This document shows, one piece after another, positions 25,604 to 62,139 of a stretch of DNA of 64,000 nt. Origin of the DNA: Candidatus Parcubacteria bacterium (GTDB lineage: Bacteria > Patescibacteriota > Patescibacteriia > Patescibacteriales > UBA12075). The notes under the pieces were generated by a model that saw only the letters and a program-made list of their open reading frames with translations, made no database searches and was not told the origin of the DNA. The DNA lies in assembly GCA_963814275.1 (NCBI GenBank), contig CAWFCE010000002.1:426537-490536 (forward strand). Direction: 5' to 3'. Within the stretch, counting starts at the first letter, position 1. Each line of letters starts with the position of its first letter. The translations under genes were made by a program, and so were the position numbers.

Positions 25604-25657
25604 TACCCGACCGCATATAGCATCAACCAAGAAGAAAAATTACTAAGATCAGTATCA

Positions 25658-27541: not shown

Positions 27542-27548
27542 TCAGTGA

Positions 27549-27577
27549 TTGTCCGATTACCCGGTGTTTGCTATAAT
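27549..27577 (+). promoter_or_regulatory. sigma70-like promoter for the major pilin gene
   Basis: TTGTCC (27549-27554), 17-nt spacer, TATAAT (27572-27577). It lies 31 nt upstream of ATG 27609. Confidence 0.5.
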
Positions 27578-27608
27578 TATAATAACTAATAAATCATTTT
27601 AAAACCGT

Positions 27609-29787: not shown

Positions 29788-30365
29788 AAATTGTCTTTCA
29801 AATTACGGAGATGAACGTCTGATTCCAGGATGTAGTCGTTAGGGGCCCGTTCGGGCGTGACATTCACCATCAGATAAATTCTGATCAGGCGGATCTGGTC
29901 AAGGTCGTCTGTTTCGTCCAGGTCATTGTTAAAATAGCGGAAAACGGCAATACCCTGGTTACTGACATACTGGGCGATCGTGGTGGTCGCGCCCGGTTGC
30001 TTGTAATCATTGGCCGGTCCGGCCAGTGTTATCACCCGGTATAAAGCCAGATTGTCGAGAAAATATCTGATCCTTTCCGTTTTGCCGTCATAATCATTGT
30101 CACTGTAAAAAACGAAATTATCGTCCTCGATCTTGGTCAGGGGATAATCGCCCCGCTCCGAATCATTGGCGCCGCGGATTTCCTTGGTCATTATTTCCAT
30201 GGCCCGGCGGGCGTTTTCGATCGCCGTCAGCTGCTCCGAACCGAAAGTAAATGTGCGGAATCCGGTAGCGATTAACCGTCCGCCGTAAATCGCGACCAGT
30301 GTAAAAATGCTCATGGACACCATTATTTCGATCAGGGTAAAGCCGTTGTTGCCACGAATATGCAT
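29784..30365 (-). CDS. minor pilin (PilW/GspJ-like) with prepilin motif
   Basis: I prefer ATG at 30365; the track start at 30422 is a TTG. The head is MHIRGNNG|FTLIEIMVSMSIFTLVAIYGG. Confidence 0.7.
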   Translation of the reverse strand: MHIRGNNGFTLIEIMVSMSIFTLVAIYGGRLIATGFRTFTFGSEQLTAIENARRAMEIMTKEIRGANDSERGDYPLTKIEDDNFVFYSDNDYDGKTERIRYFLDNLALYRVITLAGPANDYKQPGATTTIAQYVSNQGIAVFRYFNNDLDETDDLDQIRLIRIYLMVNVTPERAPNDYILESDVHLRNLKDNL

Positions 30366-30520
30366 AAGCCAGAAAACTATTGATTCGTTAATTATAGTTA
30401 ATACGCGCGATATTGAAATCAAGCTATGTTTCCGGTTCGGCCCACTGCTTGCCGATTATAAGACATAAGTAATAGGCCGGTAATTTGGGAATAATTGTCT
30501 ATTATCTGTATTATTACTTA

Positions 30521-30539
30521 TTTTTTGCCAGGCAAAAAA
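30521..30539. terminator. A/T-flanked palindrome TTTTTTGCC-A-GGCAAAAAA, possible weak bidirectional terminator
   Basis: It lies 37 nt downstream of the stop of the 1,415-aa gene (minus strand). The GC core is only 3 bp, so any termination function is uncertain. Confidence 0.35.
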
Positions 30540-30575
30540 CCCATGAAACAGATAAATGTGTAATCTTTCTTTGCC

Positions 30576-33500: not shown

Positions 33501-34823
33501 GGCCAGGACGGAAAAATCGGGATACATAAAAGCGAATTCATTGGTCGATGTATAAAACGTGGTATCGGAGTATTCCTTTAATATCGGTTCAAAATAAGTG
33601 TTTTGACTGTTTATCAGCGCAAAATTCGGCTGTTTCTCGACGGCGCCGGCGGGCTGGGCTTTGTCCCGGGCCAGGCGGGTACCGGGGGCATAGGTCAACG
33701 CTTTCAGGCTGCTTGAATTATCCTGCCAGACGATAAAGGAATGGCCGCCCGCGCTGATGGCAATGTCTGGGTTTTCCTGGAAAAGCGTATTGTTGATCAC
33801 TATATCGTCCGTCCATTGTTTGACCGCGCCTGAATTGTATTTTTGCACGAAGACTGATGAACTGGCGCTACTCTGGCTTTGCCAGGCAAAATACAGATTA
33901 TCAGCGCCGTCCAGGGCCAGGCGCGGTTTGACCTGTTCCGCTCCGCCGTGGCTTTCGTTCACCGGCCAGTTTTCCGGCAGATTGGCCGTGACAGTCCTGA
34001 TTTGCAGAGTAGCCAGTTTATCGATAGTGAATGCTTCTTCGGTCATGTCGCCTTCAGTGACCGTCAGATGGTAAGGCGATTGGCCGGTCGAAGTGCCGTA
34101 AGTACGGTCTGTCCCATAGTAATACTGCGGTTCTTCATTGGTTTTGGTGACCGTAATCTCATAGCCCTGATAAGATGAAGTCGCCGGCAGATAAAGCTCG
34201 CCCTTGCCGTCGGTCAGATTGATGACATTGATCGGCGGGTTAACCAGATTATTGACCACCCGGACTTCGGCCGTGGGGATCGGCTGGGCATTGGCGCCGG
34301 AAACGGTTATTTTGAGCAGGCCGTAACCCTCGTTAGTTTCGACGGTGCGGGGGATGACCTTGGAGAACATGGTGACGTTTTTCAGGCCTGATTTGGCTTG
34401 CCAGCTGACCTTGACCGTGGCGATCTTATAGTCGGTGGGGATGGTGTCGGGAGTCGTCGATCCGATTCGGCCGTCGGCCGGATCATCAAAATAGGTAACA
34501 TAGGTGTTGACCGTATAGTGGCCCGAACGGGAGATAATTTCCTCTTGGGGAATAATGCCATTGGGGATACCGCTGATCACCCCGACATCAGAATAGGGCA
34601 TATTCCTGATTTGTTCGATCCTTTGGTTGGCGATCTCAATTGCTTCAACATAGAATTTATTATCATTGGTAATGCCGAGGAACAACAGGACCAGGCTGTA
34701 AACGCCCAGGGTAAGGATCATGATAATAAAAAGCGAAACGATTACTTCCATCAAAGTAAAGCCCGTCCGTGTTCTGTCGGGGCCGTGGTTTTTTTCTGAG
34801 ATTAGCTTGTCTATTATCCTCAT
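30576..34823 (-). CDS. 1,415-aa prepilin-headed protein with CarboxypepD_reg-like, unassigned, 'YRWRNDDG' and SBBP-like beta-propeller repeat regions (candidate pilus-presented adhesin)
   Basis: The N-terminus is DRTRTG|FTLMEVIVSLFIIMILTLGVYSLV. LKITVSGANAQPIPTAEVRVVN...GKGELYLP resembles a carboxypeptidase-regulatory-like domain. The repeats NLYFAWQS..VFVQKYNSGAVKQW, NYDLYAQSFDSDGNKLW, YLAKYDLSGSALW, YLARYDTDGAEQW and DDIYAQKFDLAGTALW (about 30830-31700 and 33680-33950) resemble SBBP propeller blades. Confidence 0.8.
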   Translation of the reverse strand: MRIIDKLISEKNHGPDRTRTGFTLMEVIVSLFIIMILTLGVYSLVLLFLGITNDNKFYVEAIEIANQRIEQIRNMPYSDVGVISGIPNGIIPQEEIISRSGHYTVNTYVTYFDDPADGRIGSTTPDTIPTDYKIATVKVSWQAKSGLKNVTMFSKVIPRTVETNEGYGLLKITVSGANAQPIPTAEVRVVNNLVNPPINVINLTDGKGELYLPATSSYQGYEITVTKTNEEPQYYYGTDRTYGTSTGQSPYHLTVTEGDMTEEAFTIDKLATLQIRTVTANLPENWPVNESHGGAEQVKPRLALDGADNLYFAWQSQSSASSSVFVQKYNSGAVKQWTDDIVINNTLFQENPDIAISAGGHSFIVWQDNSSSLKALTYAPGTRLARDKAQPAGAVEKQPNFALINSQNTYFEPILKEYSDTTFYTSTNEFAFMYPDFSVLADNLHMNIIPAFSLPQRWLSQFALPLIKDAFVSRPAQAAGNIVQTKIGNVAGWSSTLTAAFDNTPTAGNVIIAIAVHSNAGDTFNTPYNAAGNFTEAKYSNTNWQMDIGIWHKVAGAGEPKQVTLTCSSYINGGVMMLMEVSGLDTGNLVDVTAANDQTGSTGNTSNSGWTAVSTDSGFAVAASVFADNNFSQPNSSNWSSGSSDHWTQRLWDYWSTNNDGSLAVASMNITAAAAQRASLTLYGGGSEERNSVMVVYNLYNPDDVSVSATGTQIANVQSGQAGNYLGAAFVVRDLTGSRGVTGITLRELGTVNAQNDLANIKLFYDLDTSAPYDCGSESYSGTETQFGATDADGFSGANGTAIFNDSVNISTTKTLCLYTVLDTGPDAEAGETIDIQIDDPASDIAITVGNVIGGASVPLDGSTVIDTPPETHQESYRWRNDDGDETGATWRESEVMPVTAVSAERLRLRFKLTNTGSLPAAAANYRLEYGEKFTSCAAAAWTAVPNDESMHWRMDASAFIDDADPTTRQLFDFGGHTFASGEMHESANTTGPIVLDGNETTEIEFSIRSTANAADNPYCFRLTDAGTEIDDYDIYPEVTLVGDYNIYIKSLDSAGNTRWAVKRVNNDNSNAHQTDPRIALTENFGTATTVVVWLDTRNGNYDLYAQSFDSDGNKLWNSGDDLALTGSSTDEYSPALAIDSNDNVYIAWTEDTVLKKTIYLAKYDLSGSALWPEPKKIVDSLFDVYDPSLAIDSGNNLYLAYTEKVIGITTAYLARYDTDGAEQWNVRANQEAFTANQSAPACAVRGAALYVSWTDNRENNDDIYAQKFDLAGTALWTDDLRLNIETGTSSQEYSRLAVDSTGDPYGVWQDSRNGYNDIYATEFTDPGAIIPMPHVPLRVWGTKTVGITPLKFEYDKTFYTDANGQFDSAVEFDNPGYRVEIVAASSSSSIILRDPIQPLMIMPQETKTWYLYIE

Positions 34824-35463: not shown

Positions 35464-38400
35464 ATGCGCGAAACAGCAAAAAAAATTTATCATAACAATT
35501 TTGTTCGTTTTGGTTTTTTGCTAGGCATTTTTGCGGCTATTTTGGGATTTTCGAATAGCCGTTTTTCTTTTGTCCAAGCCTTCAATAACCAGGTAAATAT
35601 TTTACCCGGGAAATTTATCGTCGAAGGCGAACGAAGCATATCCGGTATGACCTATGGCTGGCAAAATGTTGAAAATGCTTTCGTCCAGGATCTGAACAGC
35701 AGTGACGGGTCAGCCGCTTTCAACGGGTCCAATTCTGCCGTGTTGGCGTCAGCAAGGGGGGCGGAGATCATAGCGGCGGCGAGTTCCACGGAAACGGACG
35801 CGTCATCATCCGGCATTATCGAAGGCATTGATGGCGAGAGCGGAACAGCGGCCGCTAACGCCGACAACCATGGAGCGGAAGGGGAGCATGATGGAATGGA
35901 TAATTCCGGCGAGGCGCTTGATACCGCGACGGGAAGCGACTCCCTGCTACCGGCTGATGATGCCGCGCAAGATAAGAGTAATGACGGCAATCCATCGATA
36001 GCGCCGGCAGCGCCCACTGGCGCCGCCGGCACGAATGACGCGGCGAACAGCCAGGGTGGCGGCGATAATAACGATTTCCGGCCGGAAGATAATGTTGGCC
36101 CGGATAGCAATCCGGCGCCATCACCCGAGTCTGCAGAGCAAGCCAACACGGAAATATTGGATATAAGCGAACCGGCCGCGAACAGCCAGGCTGTCGAATC
36201 TGCCCCGGAGCAGCCGATTACGGATGGCGCGGTGAACGATTCCGCCCCGGAACCGGAACCGCTTTCGTTATCCGCGCGTATCTACCGCTTGCTTTCCCGG
36301 GTTTCTGATTTTTTCAATCCGTACAATTTGCGTTTGGCCCGGGCTGACCAGGCCGGCGACTCTGAGACCCTTGATAATCAGGAGACATTGAAAGAAAGTA
36401 TTATTTTTTCCGATTTCAGCGTACCTTCCGATTTTGAAAGCAATAAACTGGGAACAGTGAAATTAAGCCTGTCTTTGTCTGCTATCAGCGAGCTTGAGAA
36501 TGACCGCTTGCTTATCGAATATAGTTTGGGCGATTCATTCCGCCCGGTCGGATCGATCGGATTGCTTGATAACCTGGACAACAAAAGCAACGGCGGCTAT
36601 TACGCCTTTACCCTGCCCGAAAGCCTGGGCTGGCAGGATTTTACCACGTTAAAAGTCAAATTAAGCTATTATCTGCCAGGCGAAAGGCCGGATGAATCCA
36701 GGGACGTACGGATTCTGCTGGATGGGTTGTGGCTCGAAGCGGAGTATGAGGATATGAGCCAGCAGGATGATTTATCGACTACCAGCGAGGAAACGATCGA
36801 AGAAAAATTGAGCGATGAAGAAGGAAAGGTCCTGGGAGAGGAAACGGAAGTCGCCAAAGAGGACGATACCCCCTTCACCCTCACCCTGGTATCCGGGGAA
36901 AGCGAGTTCGATAACCAGGAAACGCCCAATTTCCGCTTCCGGCTCAAGAAGAAACACGGGCTGTTGGGACGGATTTGGTTCGGGTTGATCAGTCCGCTCT
37001 ATGACCAGTATAGCGATATGGCAGTCGAAGCGATGGTGCGGGACCGCGCAACCGGAGAATTCCTGGACGTCCAGCCGGAGATCAGCTATCTCGGTGACGG
37101 GGAATTCCAGATCAATTTCGAAAACCAGCCGCGGCAGTTCCGCCCCGGCCGGCATAAGCTTGAGCTGGTCATCCATAACGAAAACAAGGAATATAATGTC
37201 GTTCAGGACTTTACCTGGGGCGTATTGGCCTACAATAGCGATAAATCGGTTTATGCTCCGGGGGAAACGGCATATCTGCAGCTGGCGGTGCTGGATGACG
37301 CGGGCAATACCTTATGCGACGTGGACTATCTGACCGTTGCGGTGCGCGATCCGCTGGGGCATGTCGACTATCTATCCACTTATAGCGGCGATATTATCGT
37401 CAATCCCGCATGCGATGGCAACAGCGTGATCGATACCCCGGATTTTTATGCTTATTACCGCACCGGTCCGGCCGGTGAGTACAACATCGAAATATCCGCC
37501 CTCACAGCCAACGGCCTGCGGGAAGCCAAGGATAGTTTTTTGGTGCAGGAATCCCCGGCGGTGTCGGTCGAACGGGTCGGACCGACGCGTATTTTTCCCA
37601 CAGCCGGCTATCATATCGAGTTCAGGATAAAACCACAAGAGGATTTTAGCGGCATATTCAGCGAATTCGTGCCGCTTAATTTTTGGATCAATGAACAGCC
37701 CGGATTCACTGTCAGCAATGAGGGTGACGTAAAAAAATTGACCTGGGACGTTGACTGGCAGGCCGGCCGGGAATATCAGATCGAATATTATTTCGACGCG
37801 CCCGATATCTCGCCGGAATTTTACTTCCTCGGCCCGGCGTTAATGGAAGTCAGAACCGCCAGCGGCACCATTCCCTATTTCCGGGAGGAGCGGAAATGGC
37901 AGATCGCATCTGACGCGATCGACCCCTTGGTTACTTTGGGCAGCAAGGATCGTAGCGATAACGCCTATAACGGGAATGAAGAAACCTTGGTATCCATTAC
38001 TTCCGGATTTGAAGCAGGAGAGAATTATTTCGTGTTCGGCGGCATCGGCAGCAACCGCTATCACGGCGGCAATGACCGGCATGAAGTGGCATTGGTCGCT
38101 TCCAGCTCCGATGCCAATACCGACGCCTATCATTTAGGCGATTCTGAAGCGATTTCGGAAGGGCCGGCCGCAGATGACGGGGCATCGATTTTCTTGATGG
38201 ACAAGGTCAATTGGGTTGACGCGGATTGGAATCTGTATCTTCGCGGTGACGCCCTGGCCGGCACCTGCCGGTCTGATGAGGCTTTTTTGATGGCCATGGC
38301 CACTTCGACAATGGGTATCCAGGGCAGCGATTATTACTGGGCGGAGGATTTCACCAGCAACGATCTGGCCGGCAATCCGGGACGCAACAATTACGTCTCC

Positions 38401-41400
38401 ACCACGATCAATGCCAATGGCACTGACCGGTATCTGATCATCGCGCAGATGAAGATCGACGTCGAGACCGTCGGTGAATTCGCCGGAATCGAGCTTTATG
38501 ACGGCAGCCGTGTCATGGTGCAATCCATCCGCGATACCGAGGATACGAGTGACGAGATCCAGATTTTCACGGCCACTTCCACGGTTTTGGCCGCCGGCGA
38601 CAATACCATCACCCTGCGCGGCTGGGGGGAAACGGTTAATACCGGCAATCATGTCAATTCCCGCATTCTGGCCATCCGCCTGAATTATTACGATGATTTC
38701 AGTTGCGGCTTCCTGAATAATACGAATCTGGTCGGCGCCGCGCCAGCTGTCTACGCCAATACGTCCCTGGCTCTCTCGGAGGCCGGAGACGTGGTGGCGT
38801 TTTATTATGGCGCTTTTTCCGCGTCAGACCGGGATTCGGACGTATCGCTTCGCGCCCGTTATGATGCGAACATCCAGTACCAGATAACCGAAGATGATAT
38901 CGCCAATGGCGAGGGCCGGATCAATGTCTGGGATGTAAACGATATCGAACCGACCTTATGGTTCGACAAGATCTCGGTTGCCGATACCAATGCCCATACC
39001 TACGATTTGTCCTATGAGCGCGGGGGAACGGCCGGCGCCCAGGTGGATTACGCAATGGTTTGCGTCTGGAGCGAGGCGATCGAACCGTTCTTCAATGCTA
39101 CGGCTTACGCGCAGTACGAAAGCGACGCCACGACTACGATCGCCAACGGGGATTATACTGGCAATGAAGTATACCTGGAGGCGCGGGCCGAATATATGGA
39201 TCCGTCATCGACCGCGATCGATTATTATTTCCAGCTGGCCACCACTACGGGGAATTATATAAGTTCAAGGGCCGAACCGGGCGCGTATTGCAGTTCCGGT
39301 ACGGCGTATGATTCCTGCGGCCCGAAGGTCTGGCACGCCACTTCCGCTCCGGCTGCCGCGGACTGGTATGACGCGCATTGGCTGTACCGGATGCCCCTTA
39401 CCGTCAATGCAAGCCAAGTAGCGACGACGGCCGCGGATTTCGTGGTCCTGGCCACGACCACTGATGTCAACCTGGCTTATACAGGCAACGGCGGCCATAT
39501 GGCCAGCTCGAGCGGCGCTGATCTGGTGGTAACCGATGCTTCCGGCAATCCGCTCAATTACGAACGGGAATATTATTCGCCTACGACCGGTGAAGTAGTG
39601 CTATGGATCCAAACCGATATTTCCTCCACTACTGACACAGAATTATTCATTTATTACGGCAATCCGGCGGTTACTGCCGATATGTCGGCACCCGCCGCCA
39701 CCTGGAATTCGGATTTTGCCGGCGTCTGGCATCTGTCCGAAGGCGGTACCGGCACGCGCTACGATTCCACGGCCAACAGCTACGACGGCACCACCTCCGG
39801 CTACGAGGGGGATGAAGCCACTACCGGCCTAATTGACGGGGCCGACAGTTTCGAAGGCACCAACGATTATATCGATACCGGCCAGACGCCGACCAATATA
39901 GGCATAAACGGAGCCGCCCCTAAATCCGTCAGCGCCTGGGTTTATACCCGCGCTTTTGCCAATGACGGTATCTTTGAAATGGGTACCCATGCTGCTAGCC
40001 AGGATTATTGCCTGCGGACCACGGGTGCGGTTAATACTTGGCGGGGCCAATTCTGGGGCGGAGATATTGACTTTACCTACAATTCCGCTAACCGCTGGGT
40101 GCATTTTGTGACCGACTATGACGGCACTACTGTTCGTATTTACGCCAACGGAACTTTAGCGGCATCCGGAGCAAGGGCATTGAACACTACCGACACCATT
40201 CCTTTCCGGATCGCTTATTATGGCGGCGCCACCATTAACGCCGTTATTGACGAAGTCAGGGTTAGCAATGTATCGCGCACCCTGGGCTGGGTCAAAACAG
40301 AATTCAATAACCAGTCGAGCGTTGATACGTTTATGGATATCGGCGCGGAACAGCCGGGTGTGTTCATTGCCCAGGGGATCGTCAATATTCCTGGCATCGC
40401 CAATGATAACGATGGTTACAAATGGCAAGTCTTGGCCTGCGAGGACGGCGGCGGCTGTTCCTATTGGGACACTTTCAACGACAATGCCCCCAATTTCCGG
40501 GTGGACGCCAGTGCCCCGACACCACCAGGGGATTTGACGTTCTTTTCAAAAACCGACAGGGAGATCACATTGGATTTTGGCGCATCGTCGACTGACGCGA
40601 ACTTCGACCGTTATCGGCTTTATTATGCCACTTCTTCGCCGGTTACGGAGGACGACATCGAACAAATGGACGGCAATCTGCTTTATCAGGATTACCATGC
40701 CGCCGCGACCACGACTTTGTCCGGATTGCAGCCGGATACCACTTATTACATAAATATCTGGGCTTATGACATGTCCGGCAACAAGGCCAGCGCCACGCCG
40801 ATCACGGTTACGACCAGAACAGCCGGCCGCGCCAACACGGTATATTTCCTGGCCGGCGAGTACAACGGCAATGGTTTGACCGGACAGAACAGCAACGCTT
40901 CCAACACCCTGCCGGCATTCAATATCTATCTGGCTGAAGATGATGTGGCGGTCGAAAACGCTTACATTGTTTTTGAAACGCAATTCGAGGGCTATAACAG
41001 CGATTCGGCGGATTTTACCGGCTATTCCCTGGCTTTCGACACTTGCGCTTCCCCCTGCGCGCCGGCGCCCTGGACCGGCAGCGGCAGACGCGTGGAGCGG
41101 GACACGACCGCGCTGGCCTACGACGACAATGACGGCGGCAGCCGGCACGCCCGCCTGGTGTTCGATGTGACAAATGAGCTGGAACTGAAGCGATATGCGG
41201 GCGCTTCGACCTTGTCGGCCCGTCTGGGCTATTATCTGGAGACCGATGCCGCCCGCAATTCGATCGCCTATGCCAGCGCCATGCTGGTATTGACCTATTC
41301 TTATTCTCCCTCAAGCGAATCTTTGACCAATACGGTGTTTTATCCCCTTGAATCAACCATCGGACAAGGCTCAATGCCGAGCGGCCAGGCTGATAACTGC

Positions 41401-44400
41401 ACCCTGGATTCCGACTGCCCGCTTTTTACCTATAACATGTATTTGCCGGAATTTGCCGATTCGCCGGGCGGCAAAAAGCTCAACCAATGGTTTGAGACCC
41501 ACAATACCCCCGACAATAACCGGGCGGACGATATTTACATCGATCTGAATATCGAAGCCAACGGCACGCCCGGCAGTACCAGGATTTTCGAGGCTGGCAA
41601 CACCAATAATGGCGAAGGTTCCCTACCGCCTTTTTATTTCACTAATATTCCGGGATATAGTGAAAATACCACCGCCACCCTGGAATACCATGCCTCGACC
41701 AGCCCCAATTTCAGCCCGATCTATTACCTGATCGGCGGCGAAGCGGCCGAAACATATACCGCTTCACGGACGGCCGCGGTCAAGACCAGGACAGTCCGGA
41801 TACCGGTCGGGGTAGTCAACGCCGGATTGACCACGGCTACGACCAGCGCGTCGGTCAGCGTGTATTTTCCGGAAAATGGCGCATCAAGCGGCATCGTCAA
41901 TATCAAAAAGGCCTGGTTCAGGATCAATACCAATATGCCGACGCGCGGGCCCACTTATATGAACGTGGAAACCAGGACCGGCGCTAATGCCACCACTGCG
42001 CCTATCCGTTATGAATATTCGACGACCCGGGTGGCCGGCCGTCCCAGCGTGATGTTTAACCATATAATCCCCGAGTCCGATTATGCCGCATTGGCCGCCG
42101 CTAACGGTGTTACCGCTGTGCCGGTGGCCATTACGACCAGGAACGATCTGGGCACGGTACCGGGTGTTACCTCCGCTGAGCTGGTCATTACCTATACCTA
42201 TACCGACGAGCAGGACGGTTATTTGTCGAGTCATGCCCTTTTTGCGGGCCAGCCCCATATACCGGCTAACGCTTTGACAGCGACAACGACGACCGCCCGC
42301 TTTGTCGCTCCCGAATATGACGATAGCCACAAAACTTTGCTGGCGGCCGGCCTGCTTTCCCATTTCCATTTCAGCGGCAATGACGGCAACGGGGTAGGCG
42401 GCGTTACATTCAAGTCCGGCGCCGGACTGGCCATAGCCAGCCCTTATGCCAGCACATCATTGGCCCTGATGACGGATGGCGTCAACGGCCTGGGTGAATT
42501 TTATCAAAATGTGACCACTGCCATGACCCCTAATCATGATATCAGTTATGAAACGATATATGTCAATGACGGCGGCAATGATCCGACCTCGGACGGGGCC
42601 AAGATGGGCGGCCAGCTGATCTATACATACGGCTATTATAATCCGGCGGCTATCAAAATATCCGACTTAGAACAATATAAATCAGATGCCAGCACCACTA
42701 TAGCAAACCAGGCCTGGACTGATGAAAATCAGGTCGTGTTGGAAGCGAAAGGCGAAGCCAACGGTGAGCTGACTTATTATTTCGAAGCCCGTGATGCTTA
42801 TAGCCAGTTCGCCACCTCGACCGACGAACCGGAAGATGGTTGCGCCTCAGGCACAGCTTTCGGGTCTTGCCCGAGCAAGATTTGGAGCGTGACCGCCACC
42901 AATACCAGTGACTGGTACGACATCGGTTGGCTGTATCGCAAGCAGATCACGATCCATGCCAGCCAGGTGGCGACAACCACCAGCGGGTTTCCGGTTTTGG
43001 CGACGACCACTGATGCTGAGTTTGCGTACAGTTCGCATGGCGGACATGTCGCCAGTTCGACCGGCGCCGATTTTGTGATTACCGGTGCGGATGGGGTTAC
43101 GGCTGTCCCGTATGAACGTGAATACTACTCTTCTTCCACCGGTGAGATCGTTTTTTGGGTCAAGACCGATATTTCCTCCACCACCGATACCGCTTTGTAT
43201 ATTTATTACGGTAATGCCGACATCGATTCCGATAAGTCATCACCGGCCGCTGTCTGGAATTCGGAATTCAAAGGCGTATGGCATTTAGGCGAAGAAAGCG
43301 GCATCCGATTCGATTCCACAGCCAATAATCGCGACGGTTCGCCGGTAACATTTGAGGGGGATGAAGCATATTCGACCTACATCGACGGCGGTTTGGACCT
43401 GGACGGTAATGATGATTATCTGCATGTCGGGGCGGTCGGGATTACCGGCGGCGCGGTGCGTACGATCTCCGGCTGGGTCAGGACCGACGACACTGCGCAG
43501 AACGACTGGACCGATATTTTCGGTTTCGCCGGCGGTACTGCCGCCAACCAGTTCTTCGACGTGGAAGTCGATGGCGGCGGCGGCTGTCCCGGCAACGGAT
43601 ATATCGTCCATGTCTATGGCGCCGAATGGTGTATCATGAATAACTGGGATACGGCCTGGCACCATATCGTGGTGACCTACAACGGCAGCCAGGTCAAGGG
43701 CTGGCTGGACGGGGCCAATACCCTGACCCAGGCTTATGGCGCCCTGAATGCGGCCGATAACGTTCAAATGGGCCAGCGCAATGATAATGCCAACAATTTC
43801 AACGGTAAGATAGACGAGGTCCGGGTGGCGGATGTGGTGCGCACCCCGGGCTGGATCATTACCGAACATAATAACCAGAGTAATAACGGTGATTTCCTTG
43901 CTTTCGATACTGAAGAGACCGGGCCGGCCCTGAATCCGGCGCAAGCGAGCATTACCGGTCTGCCGGAAAGTAGCGCCGGTTATCAGTGGCAAGCCATGGC
44001 CTGTGATGACGGCGGTGTTTGCAGCGCCTGGAAACCATTCGGCGTTCCGCCTAATTTCCGGGTTGATTTGACTCCGCCAACCGCGCCCGGCAATCTGACT
44101 TTGAATACCCGCGATAGCCGCAGTATCACGGTCGATTATGATTTCGCCACTGTTGAGAGCAATTTCGCTTATTATAAGATTTTTTATAAGGAAGGCGGCG
44201 CGGGGGTTACCGTCAATGACAGCGAACATAGCGACGACAATCTGCTTGCCCAGAATTATAACGGCGAAGGCGGTACGACTATTACCGGTTTGCAGCCGGG
44301 GGTAACCTACGCTATCAATATCTGGGCCTATGATCTGGCCGGAAACAAGACTCCGGCCGCGATTGAGTTAACCGCGTCAACCGATGAGGCCGGCCGCGCC

Positions 44401-47400
44401 CGGACGGTACAATTTATGGCCGGCCGGTATTCCGGCGACGGTACAACCGGTCTGTTAACCGACACAGATCAGGATTTGGACGGATTCGAATTCGCCTTAG
44501 CCGAGGATAATGTCTATATCGAAGACGCCTATCTGATCTATGAATTGCATTATGACGTATATGGTATCGATACCGACCCTTACACCGGTTATGAATTAGC
44601 CTTCGATGCCTGTCAGGAACCTTGCGATCCCAATCCGTTCGGCGGCAGCGGCTTAACAATCGAAGATACTACGGTACTCAGCTGGAATGACGACGGCGGA
44701 GCTTACGCCCGTTTGCTTTTCGACATAAGCGATGAGCCGGAAATCGCCGCTTATGCCGGCGGCGGTATTCCCTACGAAGGCAAAGCCGGCTTTCGCCTGA
44801 ATAAAGCAGCTCCCACTAATTCGATCGCCTATGCGTCGGCCCGGCTGGTGATAACCTATACCAGCGACCGGGACAGTGAAAATATCACAAATACGGTGAT
44901 CTATCCGCTGGAATCCCTGACCGGCACCGACCAGGGCAGCCGCCAGGTATATGAGGACGATAATTGCACGTTGGATTCGGATTGCCCGCTATTCGGTTAT
45001 AATATGTCTTTGCCGGAGTTCGTTACATCGCCCGCGCCGGAGAGATTACAGCAGTGGTTCCAGCTATACGACTCTCCTTACAATAACCAAGAAACCGATG
45101 TTTACGTCGATGTCAATATCGAAGGTGATGATACTTTGAGCGATCCCCATATTTTCGAGGCCGGTTATAACGGCAGCGGCGAAGGCACCATGCCGACCAT
45201 GTTTTACAGCGACGTGAGCGGGTACGGGGAAAATACCGACCAGGCCCTGGAGTACCGGGCCTCCTCCAGTCCCGCGCGCAACCCCGATTTCTATCTCATC
45301 GGCGGCGAAGTGGTCGAGACTTATGTCGCTTCGTCCTCCGCCGGTGTAAAGACCCGGACCGTGTCTTTCCCCCTGGGAGTGGTCAACAACGGACAGACAG
45401 ACGCGACGACCAGCGCCGAAGCGAATGTGTATTTCCCCGAAAACGGTTCGACCGGCGGTAAAGTGACCGTTAAGAAAGCCTGGTTCAGGATATTGACGAG
45501 TAACCGCGAGGTTATCGACGTGTCTACTGCCGTCTCCACGAAAGTGGGAGATAACAGTACCACTACCGACCGGACCTATCATTATATCGCCAATGCCTGG
45601 GCAACCAAACCGACCCACGATATCATCCATATCATACCGAGCGCTGACTATTCGGCCCTATCCCAAGCAGACGGCATTAACCCGGTTACGGTCAGATTGA
45701 ACACCGCCAACAGCGCTACGACCACGCCGGACGGCTTATCCGCCGAATTGATGATCACCTATACGTATTCGGATGAAACCGAAGGATACCTGAATAGCTT
45801 ATCCGTCTTTGGCGGGCAATCGGCTGAGGCCGGCAATTCCACCGATACGACGGTCAGCACCGCCGATTCGGTCATGCCTGAAGGCGGTAATAAGACCATA
45901 CTGGCCGCGGCGCTCAAAGCCAATTATTTGATTACCGGTTCCAATGCTATCAATAACGATCCGATCTTCAAGTTGGGCGCCGGTTTGGGGACCACCACCC
46001 CGAGCACCGTTAATAATTTCAATGCCCGTCCGGACAACCGCAATGCGCTGGTTACCTGGTATCAGGATGTCAGCCAATCGCTGGGTATCGTCCACAATAC
46101 CCCCTATCTGGTCCGTTACACCAATGACGGCGATGCCGACAGCAGCCATGACGGCGCCAAGATGGGCGGCGAGCTCATTTATACCTATCAGTATTATCAG
46201 GCTGAACCCGTCGTCGTCACCGCCAATGAGCAGTACAAAGGCGATGCCGCCACCGTTATCCCCAACCAAAGCTGGACCAACGAAAATCAGGTGGTGCTGG
46301 ACAGTGTCGCTTTCGACAACGGCACCAGCACCGCTATCGATTTTTATTTCGAAGTGCTCGGTAACAGCGGCACCTTTACCCCGACTTCGACTGTCCCGGC
46401 TTCATCATGCGCTTCCGGCGTCAGCTGGGGGTCCTGTGGCGCCAAAGTGTGGACCGATACCGTCAATGCGGAAACCGAGTGGTACGATCCCGCGTGGTCT
46501 TACCGCAAGAAACTGACGATCAATGCCAGTAATGTCAATGTCACGACTGATGATTTTGCGGTTTTGGCCACTACTACCGATCCCAATCTGGCTTACACCG
46601 CTTATGGCGGCCATATGGGATCATCCACCGGCGCCGATATCGTGATCACCGATTCGGATACCCTGACCCCCCTTGATTACGAACGCGAGTATTACGATGA
46701 AACGACCGGTGAGATCATGCTCTGGATCAGGACCGATATATCCACTTCAACCAATAAGATTCTATACATCTACTACGGCAATCCCTCTGTCAGTCAGGAT
46801 ATGTCCACCAGCACCGGAGTATGGGACAGCGATTACGCGGCCGTTTGGCATCTGGACGAAACCGGCAGCGGGGCGGCAGGCGAGTACAAGGACAGTACCA
46901 ATTACGGCAATGACTGCCGGGGCGGCGGCGGTACAGCCGCGCGCGTCCCGGCCCGCGCCGGCAGTGTTCTGGGCGGCTATGCCCAGGATTTCGACGGGGT
47001 GCAGAACGCCAATGGCGACTACCTGGACTGCGGCAACGGCAGCGCTTTGACCGGAACGAAAGGGGCGATTACCGTCTCCGCCTGGATCCGGCATGATCCG
47101 ACCGCGGCTGACGGCCACATCGGGGCGGATGGCGGCGGCTGGGGCCAGAACGGCTTTTCTTTCTTCTGGCTCAATGACCATATCCGCATCGAGTATAACG
47201 GCGATACGGATGATGATTCGAATATCACAGACGATGGGGAATGGCACTATGTGGTCAATACCTGGGACCAGGCGACCGATATAAAATACATCTATGTCGA
47301 CGGGGTGCAGGAGAATATCGGCGTATACGCCGGCGCCCAGATCAATGCCGGCGCGTACAACATGAACATCGGCCGCATGGCCAATCAGCCCAATAATTAC

Positions 47401-50400
47401 CTCTTCGGCGGGGAGATCGACGAATTCCGCGTGTCCAATATCAGCCGCGACGCTGATTGGATCCAGACCGAGTACAACAACCAGCACGACGCGAACAGCT
47501 TTATTTCTTTTGCCGGCGTGGAAGATTCATATTTATCGCCGTTGATCGAGGGCCAGGTGAATGTGACCGGTATTCCGGATTCGGCCAGCGGCTACAAATG
47601 GCAGGTGATCGCCTGTGACGACAGCGATGTTTGCTCCAGCTGGGACCAATTTGACACACCGCCCAATTTCAAAGTGGACGCTACTCCGCCCTTGGCGCCG
47701 GATGACCTGACACTGGCCACCACTACCCCCACCTCCATTACGGTCGAATTCAACGGGCCGGCCGCGGATGTTAATTTTGCCTATTACAAGATATTTTACA
47801 AGGAGGGATTGTCCGGTGTTACCATAGGTGATATCGAACATACAGACAGCAACTTGGACTATATAAATTATAATCATGCCACCTCGACCACCATTACCGG
47901 TTTGCAGGCCTATACCCAGTATGTAATAAATATTTGGGCTTACGACTGGGCGGGCAATTATACCGGGGCCCAGGAAATCCAGGTCACGACCGCCCAAGCC
48001 AATCACGCGCGGGCCAATTCCGTCACCTTCCTGGCCGGTACCTATTCCGGCAACGGTCTGGTCGGCAAGCAGTCGAATACCAACCAAAGTTTCAGTGCGT
48101 TCAATCTGCGCTTGGGTGAGACCGCAGTCGATATCCGCAACGCTTATATCATGCTTGAAGCCCAAATCGAAGCATATTTGCCGGCGACCACCACCAATGG
48201 CTTCCAGCTGGCTTTTGACGCCTGCGCCGAGCCCTGCACGGCCAATGCCTGGACCGGCTCCAGCTCCGTGATCTATACCGATTCGAAAGTGCTGGCTTAT
48301 CCGGATGATTCCAGCAAGCAGGTCCGGGTGATGGCCGACGTTACCGACGAGGCCCAATTAGCCGCTTATGCCGGCGATTCCGGGCTATTGGAAGCCCAGG
48401 TCGGCTACCGTTTCAACAATAATCAGGCGATCAATTCGATCGCCAGCGCCCGCGCCTGGCTGGTGCTTACCTATGCGTATGATTCCGACAATTCCAGTGA
48501 TTTTACCAACACGGTATATTATCCGCTCGATTCCCGCGCCGGCAATGACAGCGGCAGCAGCCAGAACCGGATAAACGACGACTGTGTCCTCAATTCCACC
48601 TGTCCGCTTTTCGGTTTCAATGCCACCATACCGGAAGTATCCGCCGATCAGGGACATTGGTTCGAAGTGTTCATGGCTAACGTGGGGAACGGCGCGAATG
48701 ACAATACCATTAACGCCAATATCCAGGGCACGGATGTGAATAGCGTCAGTTTCATCCATGAAGCGGCCCTGACCAATGACCAGAATAATTTCCCCCGCAT
48801 CGTGATCCCGGACAAAGCCGATAATATGGGCTTTGCCGAGAATGCCGCCAAGATATTGGAGATTCGCGGCATCGGCGCCGGCAACGGCCGCTACGATATG
48901 ATGGGCGGCGAAGTGGTGGAAACCTACATCGCACCCATGAACGCGGCACGAAGGACACGGACCGTGTCTTATCCGATCGGCGTTTTGAGCAAGGGCCAAA
49001 GTACGGCTACTTCGACCGGCTATGCCGATATATATTTCCCGGAGAACGGCCGGGGCAGCGGCGTCGTGAATATCGAACGGGCCTGGTTCAGGGTCAAAAG
49101 CAACTATGCCCAGAACGCCGATGCTTACCTGGAGCTTAGCGATCGGATCAGCGGTGCTGCCACCTCTTCGCTTTACCGGTACTACGTAAATTCCGGCAAC
49201 CGGACGATCAAGACCGATTTTACCGTGATCCATATTATTGCCACTTCCACTTACGGCAATCTCGAAGCCGCCAATGCCAGCAGCTCGGTGCGGATCTGGC
49301 TCACCACCCACAACACCAGCGATCTGATGGGCGGCACCGCGGCCGAATTGATGATAACCTATACCTATAGCGATGAATCAAGCGGTTATCAGGCCAGTCT
49401 TAACCTGTTCGGCGGGCAGAGCCAGCAGGACGGTAATGCCCATTTAGAAACCCAGAAGCTGCCACCGGCGGTGTTTCCCGAATTGCGCGGCGACAAAACG
49501 CTTCTGGCCGCCGCCCTGCAGCCGAGCTTCCTGGTCAGTGATGACGACGGGAATTTGGGGGCGTTTTATATCGAATTGGACGCCAATATCGATAAAACCA
49601 GCCCGGTTTGCGCCGCCACTTATGACGTGGCCGTCGATGGCCGCGACAACTGGGCCGAATTTTACCGTAATGTCACCGCGGCCATGGATTCGACCGACAA
49701 CGAAACGTATTATGCCTGCTATTCCGATGAGCAAACCAGCGATGATACGTCCGGGGCTAAGATGAACGCACAATGGAAGTATACCTATATGTGGCAAGCG
49801 CCGCCGATCGAACTGACCGAAAACGACTGGCGCTGGTATGCCAACGCCAATTCGGCCCAGCCGGGAGCAGCCAAAGCCGCCACCAATACCGCGGTTACGA
49901 ATGTCAATATCGGCGATGCCCTGCGCCTCAGGATGAATGTCGGTGTCAGCAAGGATACCCTGGCTGCCAGTACGCTGACTTTCAAACTGCAGTTCGCCCC
50001 CGGCTCAGACTGCCTTTCCGCCTCCCCCTGGACCGATGTCGGCGGCATCGGCAGCAACGCCCTGTGGCGGGGCTACAATAATACCGCCCCCGCGGATGGG
50101 GCCACCCTGAGCGGCAGCGGCGCCTTGCTCTATACGACCGACGCGGCACAGTCTTATGAGGAAGCTAACCCCAGCGTTTCCAATCCCCGTTCGATCGGAG
50201 TGGGGGAGTATGGCGAATGGGATTGGGTTGTCTATAATTACAATGCCTCAAGTTCGCCTTATTGTTTCCGCATGGTCAAGGGTAACGGCGACGAATTCGA
50301 AGACTACTTGGTCGATTCCTATGCCAAGCTCAACACCGCCCCGGCCAATACCGCGCCCGACAGCCCGGCCTCCCTGCTGCAATACCGGACCGATTCCGGC

Positions 50401-53400
50401 GCCGTAGTCGCCAATCTGGGATGGGCGAATTATAACGGTATGCAATTTCGGTCAACCGCCATCGATCCAAATATCAACGAAACGATTACCATATATTACG
50501 AACTGTTGCCGACCAGCGGCACCTTCAAAACCGCCACCAGCGTGCCCGCCGGCGCTTGCGCCTCCGGCACTGCTTACGGCAGCTGCGGCAGCAAAGTCTG
50601 GTCAGCGGGCAGCAGCCAGGGCGATTACCGGTCAACAGGATTTACCGGTATGGTCACCGTGCCCGGGATCGCCACCAGCAGCACGAACTACAAATGGCAA
50701 GTGATGGCGTGCGACAAGGATGGCGCGTGTTCCGGCTGGACCAATCCGGGGACCACCCCTAATTTCCGCCTCGATATGACACCCCCGACCCCGCCGGGCA
50801 GCCTGACCCTGGATACCGCCAGCGCGACCAGCATGCTCATCAAATTCGGCGCCACTTCCACAGAAGCCAATTTCAGCCGCTACCGCATCTATTATAAGGT
50901 CGGCAGCGGCAATGTGACGGCCGCGGACACCCAGCATAGCGACAATAATCTGCTCAATATCCTGTATAACGGCGCGACTACGACCACAGTGGTAAATCTG
51001 TCGGCCGGCACGGATTATACGCTCAATATCTGGGCTTACGATCTGGCAGGCAACCGGGCGACCGCTACCGTCGAATTGATCGCTTCGACCACGAGTTCTT
51101 TCACGCCGCCGGTCGGGCTGATCAACAGCACCGTACAGAAAACGGATGGTTCGGGCGTCGTGGATGTCGTGTTCCAGGCCGATGACCCAGATAATGACGA
51201 TACCCTGCGCGCCCGGTTGATGTACCAGGAGGGCATCAATTGCGATTTTTCCGCGGGAATTTACAGCAGCGCGACTTTGAGCCAGATCGATGCCGACACC
51301 ACCGCCACCTATGGCGACCCCAAAGTGGATAACGGGCAGACATACCAGGTCGGTACTGCGAGCGGCTGGATAATTACTTCGCCCGGTGCTAATTTCGTGT
51401 TTACCGACTGGGATACCAAAGCCGATATTCCCGATGCCAACGGCACTTATTGCGTGGGGTTGAGAGTCAATGACGGTATGTACGACCAATCCGCCACCCA
51501 GACCAAGCTGCTTATTATCGACAATGTCGCCCCGTCCGTACCGGCCGCCCTCAGCACGTCCAGTATCGGCTATAACAGTATTGTTCTGGAACTCAATACT
51601 CCGTATAGCAGCGATCCCCGCTTCGACAAATACCGGATCTATTACAAAAAAGGCAGCGGCGGCGTGTCGGAGAGCGATACCGAGCATGTTGACGCTAAAT
51701 TGAATTCAGTCAATTACGGCGGCGCCACATCTACCCTGGTAGCCGGACTACAGGCGGATACCTATTATACTTTCAACATCTGGGCCTATGACACCCGCGG
51801 CAATCGTGCCAGCTCGACCGAGATTACGGTCAAGACCAACGCTTCCCCGGCCAATATCGCGGCCCTGCAACAATATAAATTCGACGGCATTACGGCTGTC
51901 GCCAACCAGAGCTGGACCGATGAGGACCGGATCCGCTTGCGCGGCGCGGTCCATGACCAGGACGCGGGCGACAATATCACCTTCTACTATGAGCTGTTGG
52001 GCAATGGCAGCACCTTCACCGGCGCGGCCACGAAGCCGGCCACATCCTGCCCGAGCGGGGCATCCTGGGCTGCCTGTGCCCCGAAAATCTGGGATATCTC
52101 CACCACTTCCAGTGAATTGCCCCAGGACTGGTACCACGAAGACTGGCTTTACCGCAAACCGTTAACGATCGCTGCCGCGGAGGTGCCTCAGGACCAGAAC
52201 GATTTTCCGGTATTGGTCCATATTACCGATACCGATCTGGCGGCCAAGGCCCTGACCAGCGGCTATGACCTGATCTTTACCGATGCCGGAGGGACCAGCA
52301 CCCTGCCCTATGAGCGCGAATACTGGGACGAATCGACCGGCGAGCTCGTCGCCTGGGTAAAAACCGACATCTCCGGCACGGTCGATACGGAAATCTATCT
52401 GTATTACGGCAACGGCAAGGCCGAAACCGACCCCGCCACCACGATCGGGGTCTGGGACAGCGACTATCGGGGTGTCTGGCATTTGGATGAGGACGTGGTG
52501 GATGAGGGCAGCCAGGCCGGCGCGCATGGCGATTCGACCGCCTACGGCAATAACGGCGACCAGGCAGGCAACAATGAAACGGCCGGCTTGATCGGCCAGG
52601 GCCAGGAATTCGATGGTAACGATTATGTGGACATAGCCGATAATGCCAGCCTGGACCTGAGCAGCGAGCTTACCCTGTCCGCGTGGATCTATGATAGCGG
52701 CGGAGGCGGCACTTGGAGCTATAAGCGTTCGATCAGCTTAAGCACAACGACCGCTGCAGACGATTATCAGATCAAAGTGGATCTGGGTGCCGGTTATAAT
52801 TTCGATTATGATAAGGCGGATGAGGACGGCGATGACCTGCGTTTCTACGATACCAATGAAAACGAGCTTGATTATTGGATCGAGACCTGGAATCCGGCGG
52901 GCACTTCCACGGTTTGGGTCAAAGTTGCCGCGGCCGGCACCGATGAGCTGGTGATGTATTACGGCAATTCCGCCGCCGGCGCGATGAGCGACTTTGACGG
53001 CATGTTCACCCAGGGCGGCTTGCGGTATTTCTATTATGACGGGATTGCTTTTGACAGTTTCCAGGGTACGGATATCGATTCCGCCATTAATTTCAATTTC
53101 CCCGATCCGCAAGTGGTGCAGATCAACGGCAATGCCTGGGAAGACCAGGTGGACACCTGCTCTATCCGCTGGGAAGGTTTTGTCGAACGGGATCATCCCG
53201 GCAGCCATACTATGTGGGGCGGCGGCGACGACGGCTACCGCCTCTATATGCCCACCGGCGCATCGACCGAACTTTTGGGGGAGTGGTATAACCATGGCTG
53301 GCAGCAGGACAGCGGCGTATATGATTTCACCAACCAGCAATATTCTTCCCTGACTTTCGAATTCTATGAGAACGGCGGTACGGCCCGAACAGCCCTGCAG

Positions 53401-56400
53401 TGGGATCCGGGCACGGGAGTCGTCTCCATTCCCGCCGCTAACCTCTATTACCGCAATTACCAGCAATATGAACCGTTGCCGGCCATCGGCAGCGAATCGG
53501 CCGCCGGGGTGACCAAACTGGGCGCCTATGGAATCGTGATCGATTCCGGTTCGGCCAGCGGAAACATCAACTCCACCATCGCCAATGCCGGTCTGGGGGC
53601 GGGCTGGAACGATGTTGCCCTTACCTATGACCGCAACGCCGGAACGAACCAGCTTAAGCTTTATATTAACGGCCAGCAGGCTGATACGGAGATTCTTAAC
53701 GAAGTGATCATATCCAACGGGCAGGACCTCGTAATGGGCGATTTATTGGAAGGGATATTGGACGAAGTCAGGCTTTCGGCGGTCGCCCGCAGCGCCAACT
53801 GGATCCTGACCGAGTATAATAACCAGAAAAGCGGCAGTACCTTCCTGTCCGTCGGCCAGGAAGACCAGGTGGTCTCATTCTATGAAACAGCCCTGGTGAT
53901 CGATGTTGACGATTCCGCCAGCGGCTATAAGTGGCAGGTGATGGCCTGCGATGATGACGGCGATTGCAGCGGCTGGGACAAGTTCAACCTTGCAACTCCC
54001 AACTTTAAAGTCGATACGACCGACCCGACTTCACCCGGGGATTTGACCGGATACGACAAATCAAGCAACAGCATCACCCTGGAATACGGCGCTGCCACCG
54101 TCGAGAATAACTTCGTCGAGTATCGGATATTCTACGCCACCAGCTCGCCGCCAACCGAGAGCGATACCGAGCATGACGACAGTGACCTGGATCACAAGGA
54201 CTACAACAGCCAATCCACCACCCAGGTAACGGGCCTGCGGCCGGAAACCACCTATTATTTCAGGATCTGGGCATATGATATCGTGGGCCGCTCCGCCAGT
54301 TCGAGCGTAACCGCTATCACTACCGATGCGGCTGTTTCTTCGCCGGGCGTCGCCTTCTACACCAAGGGAACGCGCAATCTTTATTACCGGCGCTGGAACG
54401 GCGCTGTCTGGGAGGATGAGGAGACCGGACCGGTATTCGGCAGCGGCCCCGGCGACAATATCCGCCATGTCCGCGCGGTCCGCAGCGATAACGGCGGCAA
54501 GGTCGGCCTGCTCATAAAGACTTCGGACGGGTCTAACCAGGAATTCTGGGGGGCGGTATACCGTTTCGTGGCCGACGATTTCGTCGGCACCAGCTCCTTA
54601 GGCAGGGAAATAGACAATATTGACGAAGAAAAGATGAATGGTTGTATAGCCTCCTTGTCAAGCGGCGATTTCATGGCAGTGCGCGTGAATGAAGACGGCG
54701 CCGGCACCAGCACGGCCGGGTTGCAAGTCTATTCCTGGAGCGCCGCCGCGGACTGGACATACGAAGGCAATGATGTCATCCCGGACAGCGGCAGCCAATC
54801 GCAGCTGAACGGCTGCGAGTTCGTGCGCCGTCCCGGAACCGACAACTATATCCTGCTGACCTCGGGCCAGGCCCGTGATTTCGGAACGGCCTATTATTAT
54901 GGCGGCGCGGAGTACGCCAACCTCTGGGACGCCTGGGAGGAGCATTCCAACCAGGAACAGGACCGCGACAATACTTTCGGTTCCGCCTATTTCGATCCGA
55001 GCGACAACACCCGCGGCGCGATCCAGTATTTCGGCGGCCGCAACGTCAATAATTTCGTATATGCCAAGTATTTTACCGCCGACGGTACCGGACTGAATTT
55101 TGGCGGCGCCGTGGCTTCCCCCCAAACCGGCAGCGATAATTGGAGCGGCTATCCGATAAACGGCGAAATAGCATCGGATCCCAGCGGCACCGGCATCGCT
55201 TATTTCGCCGGCCGCGACACCAATGATGAATTGAATATTTACAAAGTTGACGCGTCAAACCCGTCAATCAGCTGGTCGGTGACAACGGGCGGCGATGATA
55301 TTTCCGGCGGCCAGCTTTATAATGAAAGCAATTATTCGCAGAAACCGTTCGATGCCGGATTCTATAAAGGCGGCAAGGGTCTGGTAGTATGGAATGACGC
55401 TGCCAGCGCTTTGCCCGCGTACCATGAGATCGACGCGTCCGCCAACAGCGTCAGCGCCGTCAGCACGGTACCCGGCGCGTCCGCCAATATCTGGACGAGG
55501 GTGAGAATATACGATGATCCGGGTGAAGACGAATTTGCGGTAATTTACCAGAACGATGATGTCGACTATGCGGCAGTCTTCTTCGAGGGCGGCTTCGACC
55601 GTTTTTATAATAACGTGGACAATCCCGGCAGCGGCCAGCTTTGGACGGAATTGGCAGCCGACACCGTGGCGGTTGTGGACGCAGATGACGAAAATATCAC
55701 TTTTGCCTATACCAGCTACAATTCGCCGCCGGAAACACCCTTCGGCCTGGCACAGAAGAAGCTGGACGACGTTACGGCTATCGCCAACCGGGGTTGGACC
55801 AATGAGAGCGCGGTGATTTTCCAGGCCAGTGTGAACGATATTGATACCGAAGAAGTGATCAAGGTATATCTGGAACTGTTGGCCAATAATGACACGTTCA
55901 CCGCCTCGACGAGCGAACCGCAGAATCCATGCCCGACCAGCATCGCATTCGGCGATTGTCTGAGCAAATTCTGGCGCATCGCCACCAGCAGTCCGGGCGA
56001 TTACAGCGTGACTCCTTATACGGTTTCCGCGTCGATCGCTTCTACGGTTGATTCCACTATCGGCTATAAATGGCGGATAATCGCCTGTGACGATGACGGG
56101 GAATGTTCCGGCTGGAAACAATTCAGCGCCACCGTACCGAATTTTTACGTTGACACCCTTCCACCGACAGCGCCGGGCCCGTTATCCGTTTATTCCTTGA
56201 CCAGCAATTCGGTGACGCTTAAATTCGGCGCGACCAGTACGGAAACCAATTTCAGCCGCTACCGTATTTTTTACAAACAGGCAGCCGCCGGCGCGACCAT
56301 CAATGATACCGAACACAGCGATAATGATTTGAATAATATCCTGTATAATGGCACGGCCAACACTGTCGTGTCCGGCCTCAGTTCCAGCACTCAATACGTA

Positions 56401-60275: not shown

Positions 60276-60444
60276 CATAAAGTATTTTGGCTGCGGCGTA
60301 CGTATTTAGGCGTGTAGTTCCGGCAATTTTTGGGAAGGAACGCGTCTGTTAGCCGATAACGGTAAAACATAATTCAAACCATAAAATACCAGATATAGAA
60401 TTTCATATATTTTGCGGCATAAATTAGTGCGAAAATATGGTTTT

Positions 60445-60473
60445 TTGCTCGATATTGCAAATTATGTTATAAT
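60445..60473 (+). promoter_or_regulatory. sigma70-like promoter for the FN3-repeat gene
   Basis: TTGCTC (60445-60450), 17-nt spacer, TATAAT (60468-60473). It lies 21 nt upstream of ATG 60495. Confidence 0.45.
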
Positions 60474-60494
60474 TAATTATCTTAGTTATTCCCC

Positions 60495-62054: not shown

Positions 62055-62060
62055 TAATTC

Positions 62061-62088
62061 AGATAACAGATAACAGATAACAGATAAC
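62061..62088. repeat. tandem heptamer (AGATAAC)x4
   Basis: Four exact tandem copies, 6 nt after the FN3-gene stop and 52 nt upstream of the ABC ATPase start. Confidence 0.9.
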
Positions 62089-62102
62089 AGGAATGGAAAA
62101 GC

Positions 62103-62130: not shown

Positions 62131-62139
62131 TACGAAATC

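Follow-up and report, generated by a model that had tools for sequence, protein, structure and literature searches.

The 64,000-nucleotide window analysed here (positions 426,537 to 490,536 of contig CAWFCE010000002.1, from an ultrasmall Candidatus Parcubacteria bacterium) carries a giant gene whose single open reading frame (ORF) encodes a multi-domain surface protein of 8,033 amino acids (aa). Three long super-repeats follow one another in this protein, and each of them ends in a ~605-aa module made of four homologous domains, which is the subject of this analysis. The N-terminus of the giant protein, judged by eye, contains a hydrophobic signal or anchor segment. The repeats are laid out as follows, with nucleotide positions counted along the window and residues along the giant protein.

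35464-59565, forward strand: giant ORF, 8,033 aa, multi-domain surface protein
39112-42672, forward strand: super-repeat unit 1 (aa 1217-2403)
39112-39357, forward strand: unit 1, N-terminal half of a split sandwich domain
39358-39699, forward strand: unit 1, DUF2341
39700-40338, forward strand: unit 1, LamG
40339-40512, forward strand: unit 1, C-terminal half of the split sandwich
40513-40821, forward strand: unit 1, FN3
40822-42654, forward strand: unit 1, four-domain module, copy 1 (aa 1787-2397), the copy used for the AlphaFold2 model
40822-41310, 41311-41769, 41770-42213 and 42214-42639, forward strand: sub-domains A, B, C and D of module copy 1
42673-46230, forward strand: super-repeat unit 2 (aa 2404-3589), domain order as in unit 1
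44389-46212, forward strand: module copy 2 (aa 2976-3583)
46231-49809, forward strand: super-repeat unit 3 (aa 3590-4782), domain order as in unit 1
47998-49809, forward strand: module copy 3 (aa 4179-4782), by position the ortholog of the last module in orthologous giant proteins
51871-54330, forward strand: fourth, partial unit (aa ~5470-6289), with N-half sandwich, DUF2341, split LamG, C-half sandwich and FN3

An initial annotation of this DNA had described three super-repeats of ~3.56 kb, and a self-comparison in which the protein was tiled, each tile masked and then searched with BLASTP against the remainder of the protein bears this out. The tile matches are colinear, with offsets of ~1187-1205 aa and with E-values that range from 1e-50 to 1e-96 for the 300-aa tiles, placing three units of ~1,187-1,205 aa in one ORF. 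The sequence landmarks fall where the annotation had put them, with QY[EK].D at 39112, 42673 and 46231 and [DE]WYD..W.YR at 39361, 42910 and 46477, and the motifs NTV.YPL[ED]S, C[TV]L[DN]S.CPLF, [KE][KR]AWFR[IV], ETY[TVI]A, AEL[VM]ITYTY[TS]D and [IK]YTY are found once in each unit. To the three full units we add the fourth, partial one, which has no four-domain module.

Each full unit consists of six parts, a split sandwich with a nested DUF2341-LamG pair, then FN3, then the module. Pfam identifies DUF2341, Laminin_G_3 and fn3 three times each, once in each of units 1-3, in agreement with the domains first proposed; across the giant protein, three DUF2341 matches lie in the first 4,800 aa and two further downstream. 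The two separate Cys-loop domains of the initial annotation call for a small correction, as these pieces look like the N- and C-terminal halves of one ~130-aa sandwich that is split by the nested DUF2341-LamG. The halves are contiguous elsewhere in the giant protein (aa 4973-5106, positions 50380-50781; aa 6764-6899, positions 55753-56160) and in orthologs such as P0015, and separated in units 1-3 and in the fourth unit. Hidden Markov models (HMMs) built from the three copies were used to map the six parts across the orthologous giant proteins in public data, which contain one, two, three or four super-repeats in an architecture that is otherwise shared. In the protein of the window, the three modules (3 x ~605 aa) account for ~23% of the total length.

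The module does not resolve into named families. Searched against Pfam, none of the three ~600-aa stretches gave a match at a cut-off as permissive as E <= 10, and only isolated weak matches, each in at most two members, appeared when 13 family members were searched. NCBIfam and PHROGs gave no module match at E <= 1, and sequences in the PDB none at E <= 10 with either the whole module or a single domain. HHalign comparisons also show that the module did not diverge from the giant protein's own LamG, DUF2341, FN3 or split sandwich, with probabilities of at most 1.5%. Literature searches found no description of the four-domain module.

Homologs of the module are numerous. Twelve proteins were recovered in a word-indexed homology search, and a second such search with a 13-sequence profile found nothing further. 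When 1.84 billion cluster representatives were searched exhaustively with an HMM, 212 passed E <= 1e-3 and 120 passed E <= 1e-30, and in nearly all cases the match spans the full length of the profile. The family is thus not private to the giant protein, whose exact 8,033-aa sequence is absent from the protein collection searched, and among named records it resides mostly in metagenome-assembled genomes (MAGs) of Patescibacteria, also known as the candidate phyla radiation (CPR). We extracted 112 full-length module copies from 99 proteins, of which 90 contain one copy, six contain two, two contain three and one contains four. In many members, the module begins directly after a signal peptide with an AxA-type site, opening with the motif G-T-R-x-(R/K/N)-T-V, and some members contain hardly anything besides a signal peptide and one module (e.g. 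633-681 aa). The module also occurs in proteins without DUF2341 or LamG. A scan of one genome per species located 43 loci with a module, mostly labelled Parcubacteria, Falkowbacteria, Sungbacteria, Saccharibacteria or Patescibacteria, the best identity among them being 45-46%, which places the genome of the window outside that set. We conclude that the ~605-aa stretch is a genuine unnamed protein family, found mainly in Patescibacteria/CPR.

Several members of the family merit separate mention. Loci L006-L008, L016-L017, L020-L021, L029, L034-L036 and L043 come from third-party annotation (TPA) assemblies named 'uncultured Gammaproteobacteria bacterium', with one MAG named 'Acidimicrobiales'; these labels may reflect placeholders, mis-binning or a real occurrence outside Patescibacteria. 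In P0085 (1,439 aa), the module stands straight after the signal peptide and is followed by multihaem cytochrome c motifs (Cytochrome_C7, Cytochrom_c3_2 and GSu_C4xC__C2xCH), an unexpected partner for a presumed adhesin module. The stand-alone module protein P0002 is encoded at L004 on a 22-kb contig that VirSorter places in category 3, with low confidence, next to genes without Pfam matches and a weak CHAP-domain protein. A phage or viral origin of the module is unsupported, as IMG/VR viral contigs contain no relatives of the module and PHROGs no match.

The four sub-segments that had been delineated by eye are real and mutually homologous. The module comprises four related domains of ~150 aa, A, B, C and D, and HHalign with profiles from the 112 copies connects all of them: A with C at 98.2% probability (E 5e-14), B with C at 97.7% (E 2e-12), C with D at 95.3% (E 2e-8), A with D at 94.7% (E 6e-8), A with B at 64.7% (E 6e-5) and B with D at 63.6% (E 7e-5). 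Colinearity extends over ~100-130 columns in most of these alignments. The local alignment of A and C covers 47 columns in the 112-copy run versus 132 columns in the run with profiles from 13 sequences, where its probability is 96.8%. This four-way homology indicates that a ~150-aa domain was anciently quadrupled to give the module. Each domain starts with an opening strand of the form (K/R)-T-x-T-V and ends with a closing strand L-x-(I/L)-T-Y-(T/S)-Y. In a scan of all family members with position-specific HMMs, A-B-C-D was the sole order seen; in more distant relatives, A-B-C precedes a gap of ~145 aa, presumably a diverged D that escapes recognition. As judged from these profiles, the module is inherited as a fixed block of four domains and not domain by domain.

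Structure prediction, which the initial annotation had proposed for one of the ~600-aa stretches, yields an all-beta model. The AlphaFold2 model of module copy 1, built with a 13-sequence alignment, has a mean predicted local distance difference test score (pLDDT) of 85.1 and a predicted template modelling score (pTM) of 0.91 over 606 residues, and domain C predicted alone reaches a pLDDT of 88.7 and a pTM of 0.85. DSSP assigns eight main strands to each of the four modelled domains, with one short helix each in A and C at the same position. Because the pTM of 0.91 extends over all four domains, the model describes one rigid assembly, not beads on a string, and this agrees with the fixed A-B-C-D order.

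Foldseek comparisons of the whole module with the PDB and BFVD returned partial matches only, with template modelling (TM) scores of at most 0.20, to PNGases, peptidylglycine alpha-hydroxylating monooxygenase (PHM), BcsB, the three-jelly-roll coat proteins of secoviruses (tobacco ringspot virus), Cry toxins and phage tail proteins. Since such full-length alignments are dominated by differences in domain arrangement, a single domain was modelled and searched alone. Its best match in the PDB is the carbohydrate-binding domain of BcsB, with a query-normalised TM score of 0.51-0.52, followed by single-jelly-roll capsid proteins at 0.40-0.47 (cucumber mosaic virus, IBDV VP2, tymoviruses and a nanovirus), domain III of Cry11Aa at 0.47 and CBM35 at 0.39. 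Foldseek E-values for the single domain are only 1e-4 to 1e-3, and nearly all top matches are jelly rolls, each marginal. The predicted fold is an eight-stranded jelly-roll-type beta-sandwich. The suggestion of a new beta-sandwich family thus holds in that the module is unnamed in Pfam, NCBIfam, PHROGs and PDB sequences, but does not extend to the fold, which itself is probably not new.

Conservation within the family is concentrated in the strands. In the alignment of the 112 copies, identity reaches at least 90% in 32 columns, 29 of which lie in predicted strands. The conserved residues are G, T, Y, L, V, A, P, F, S and N together with three Glu; the polar ones at this threshold are the three Glu, one Asn and one Ser, mostly in strands, and no column is conserved at >= 90% as His, Cys, Asp, Lys or Met. 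Loops are barely more variable than strands (entropy 2.41 vs 2.15). In the aligned sequences, this pattern is that of a scaffold signature, not of a PHM-type copper site or an obvious hydrolase.

The three units of the giant protein diverged long ago. Compared in pairs, whole units share 41-46% of their residues and only 51-55% of their nucleotides, with an identity of ~0.39-0.41 at third positions and exact matches of at most 15-17 nucleotides; the nucleotide sequences therefore differ throughout, as had been noted. Module copies are 37-48% identical to one another, against a baseline of ~7% ungapped identity with shuffled sequence, and 170 of 606 positions (about 28%) are invariant in all three. 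The early estimate that roughly half of the positions are conserved is hence fair for pairs but too high across all three copies. The proportion of synonymous differences (pS) between units is 0.71-0.76, which amounts to synonymous saturation, and the nonsynonymous distance (dN) is 0.50-0.59; where the synonymous distance (dS) was computable, dN/dS is at most ~0.21-0.27. Nothing points to recent gene conversion. A neighbour-joining tree of module copies, computed with no bootstrap, pairs copies 1 and 2 and places copy 3 in one group with the terminal copies of all orthologous giant proteins; terminal and upstream copies had thus separated before these lineages diverged. The saturated pS, the low dN/dS and the tree support an old duplication of the super-repeat maintained under purifying selection, as the initial annotation had surmised.

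Other regions of the giant protein display further features. In the fourth unit (52681-53613), LamG is split by an insertion holding a second DUF2341 (aa ~5788-5873, E 7e-16), after which a PA14-like stretch (IRWEG...DDGYRLY) is recognisable by eye and undetected by Pfam. Two copies of a ~220-aa segment, at aa 6963-7181 and aa 7292-7521 (56350-58026), share 29% identity with an E-value of 1e-7; the segment bears a W-R-N-D-D-G-type motif and has no Pfam match, and a similar motif can be seen by eye after the module in P0010 and at aa ~4790 of the giant protein. The region at aa ~100-300 is acidic, rich in Ala, Pro and Gly, and of low complexity. Residues 300-1216, 4783-4972, 6290-6763 and most of 7004-8033 (including positions 36361-39111 and 54331-55752) have no Pfam assignment.

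The giant gene is flanked upstream by type IV pilus-like genes and downstream by a conserved group that includes an ABC ATPase.

20345-28145, forward strand: type IV pilus-like cluster, upstream of the giant gene
20345-22039, forward strand: PilB/T2SSE
22043-23134, forward strand: PilC/T2SSF
23052-23612, 23624-24586 and 27609-28145, forward strand: prepilin-type N_methyl proteins
25658-27541, forward strand: PilM
29784-34823, reverse strand: two prepilin-type (N_methyl) proteins of 212 aa and 1,415 aa, divergent from the giant gene
59568-63465, forward strand: downstream genes, in an order kept in orthologous loci
from 59568, forward strand: 235-aa protein, first downstream of the giant gene, no Pfam match
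60495-62054, forward strand: FN3/purple-acid-phosphatase-N protein
62140-63465, forward strand: ABC ATPase, followed in orthologs by a MacB/FtsX permease

Gene order in the window (17847-63465) is shared with the loci of P0014 and P0017 (L048 and L050). All three present a sensor histidine kinase, a response regulator, PilB, PilC and pilins/PilM, then the giant gene, the FN3 protein and the ABC ATPase, with the MacB/FtsX permease next in the orthologs. The pilus synteny thus comprises three loci only, which are three of the three giant-gene loci compared, and no pilus genes adjoin the stand-alone module proteins (none of four loci). The giant protein itself has no N_methyl (PF07963) match in Pfam, unlike the products of neighbouring genes. 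The downstream MacB-type transporter might help to export or process the giant protein. The 1,415-aa protein (30576-34823, reverse strand) has a prepilin methylation motif and no other Pfam domain, would be unusually large for a pilin-like protein and is absent at the matching position in L048 and L050. Further upstream, positions 1-19802 encode a GH130 phosphorylase, a GT4-type glycosyltransferase, a B12-binding radical SAM protein, a pyruvoyl-dependent decarboxylase and a FIST protein, together with several PAS/GAF histidine kinases and response regulators, which is a rich set of sensory proteins for an organism whose genome is presumed to be reduced. Scans of the 64-kb window for tRNAs and Rfam families gave no match.

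As to function, we infer with moderate confidence that the jelly-roll-type module, in its fixed A-B-C-D order, provides a giant adhesin linked to pili with a rigid block of adhesive or spacing function. The giant protein would be a pilus-associated adhesin, secreted or surface-anchored, that projects from the cell. Each module would form a stiff block that extends the reach of the adhesin and would also present variable loops for binding to the host surface, most likely to cell-wall glycans, and the three LamG-plus-module units would give multivalent binding. The module probably contributes glycan or host-surface binding. We favour a pilus-linked adhesin because both the gene neighbourhood and published work on Patescibacteria and Saccharibacteria fit it. 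In Saccharibacteria, pili, further close-range surface adhesins and host cell-wall glycans have been proposed to take part in host binding (PMC11623550).

A plainer role, as an inert structural spacer that sets the length or rigidity of a stalk while LamG/DUF2341 or other regions do the binding, is possible but doubtful. The concentration of conservation in the core strands is compatible with it, as are the high pTM, which points to a rigid body, and the regular alternation of the module with LamG-containing segments, and a range of one to four super-repeats among orthologs is what a length-setting element would be expected to show. However, a spacer is hard to reconcile with the many members that are barely more than a signal peptide and the module, and the fixed A-B-C-D order, in which each position keeps its identity in 112 copies, suggests position-specific roles. 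Catalysis would be another departure from the adhesin, with the module acting on glycoconjugates of the host envelope as an enzyme akin to the two-jelly-roll PNGase F (a glycan-releasing amidase) or to PHM. We consider this highly improbable. Foldseek does match the module to PNGases (9lwg, 7zgn and 1png) and PHM over ~330-360 columns, equivalent to two consecutive domains, with probabilities of up to 1.00; yet the target-normalised TM scores are 0.16-0.28 (1png 0.28, 9lwg 0.16) with a root-mean-square deviation of 14-15 Å, and therefore at most one domain superimposes on PNGase or PHM. With no conserved His, the copper ligands of PHM are absent, the few conserved polar residues described above lie mostly in strands, and the module has no sequence-level match to any enzyme family.

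The predicted jelly-roll fold also raises the prospect that the module might be a self-assembling lattice or shell, S-layer-like or capsid-like, and a possible relative of single-jelly-roll capsids, although we regard this as very unlikely. Capsid proteins with a single jelly roll are among the best structural matches of the single domain, the full-length matches include three-jelly-roll capsid chains of tobacco ringspot virus and other secoviruses, and secreted stand-alone forms of the module exist. Against this, TM scores to capsid proteins are low (at most 0.47 with the domain and 0.20 with the complete module) and are equalled or exceeded by those to cellular carbohydrate-binding jelly rolls (BcsB, 0.52), viral contigs in IMG/VR hold no relatives, and a module that is internal and present in up to four copies in giant multi-domain proteins is a poor fit for a lattice subunit. 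In its strongest form, this proposal would make the four-jelly-roll block a cellular self-assembling shell or lattice on Patescibacteria surfaces, on the same principle as multi-jelly-roll capsids. That is a long shot; if true, it would define a cellular lineage of capsid-like jelly rolls, with a bearing on the origin of viral capsid proteins.

A large share of bacterial diversity belongs to the Patescibacteria, which live attached to other microbes through molecules that are mostly unknown. The module offers a compact, confidently modelled and expressible target for studies of host attachment, and a family definition with its boundaries, signature motifs and domain order could annotate part of the giant proteins in domain databases.

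Among known systems, the closest counterparts of the protein as a whole are giant DUF2341-bearing proteins of Patescibacterium danicum and relatives, which PMC11809585 notes as candidate adhesins, with DUF2341 annotated as a predicted type IV pili-like component. They resemble the protein of the window in length (above 4,000 aa), in combining DUF2341 with LamG-type and FN3 domains, in bacterial group, in the part suggested for them in adhesion or host interaction, and in a connection to type IV pili-like systems. Unlike here, the four-domain module is not mentioned there, as judged by a keyword search of the text. At the level of the single domain, the module resembles the carbohydrate-binding domains of BcsB, CBM35 and Cry domain III, extracellular eight-stranded beta-sandwiches that include the best single-domain TM score; however, they have no sequence similarity to the module, the structural likeness is marginal, and they act singly or in loose tandem, whereas the module is predicted to be an obligate rigid four-domain block. 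Secovirus/nepovirus coat proteins, among the top Foldseek matches in the PDB and BFVD, likewise pack several jelly rolls of one chain together, but the arrangement in such multi-jelly-roll capsids is not superimposable on the module (TM <= 0.20), three domains stand against four, and the module belongs to a cellular context. PNGase F and PHM resemble it in that adjacent jelly-roll pairs align, but differ in inter-domain geometry, as their low target-normalised TM scores attest, and the module has no conserved catalytic or metal-binding set. What is new is therefore a Pfam-worthy jelly-roll-type family that occurs as an obligate four-domain module, within a kind of giant surface protein already recognised in Patescibacteria.

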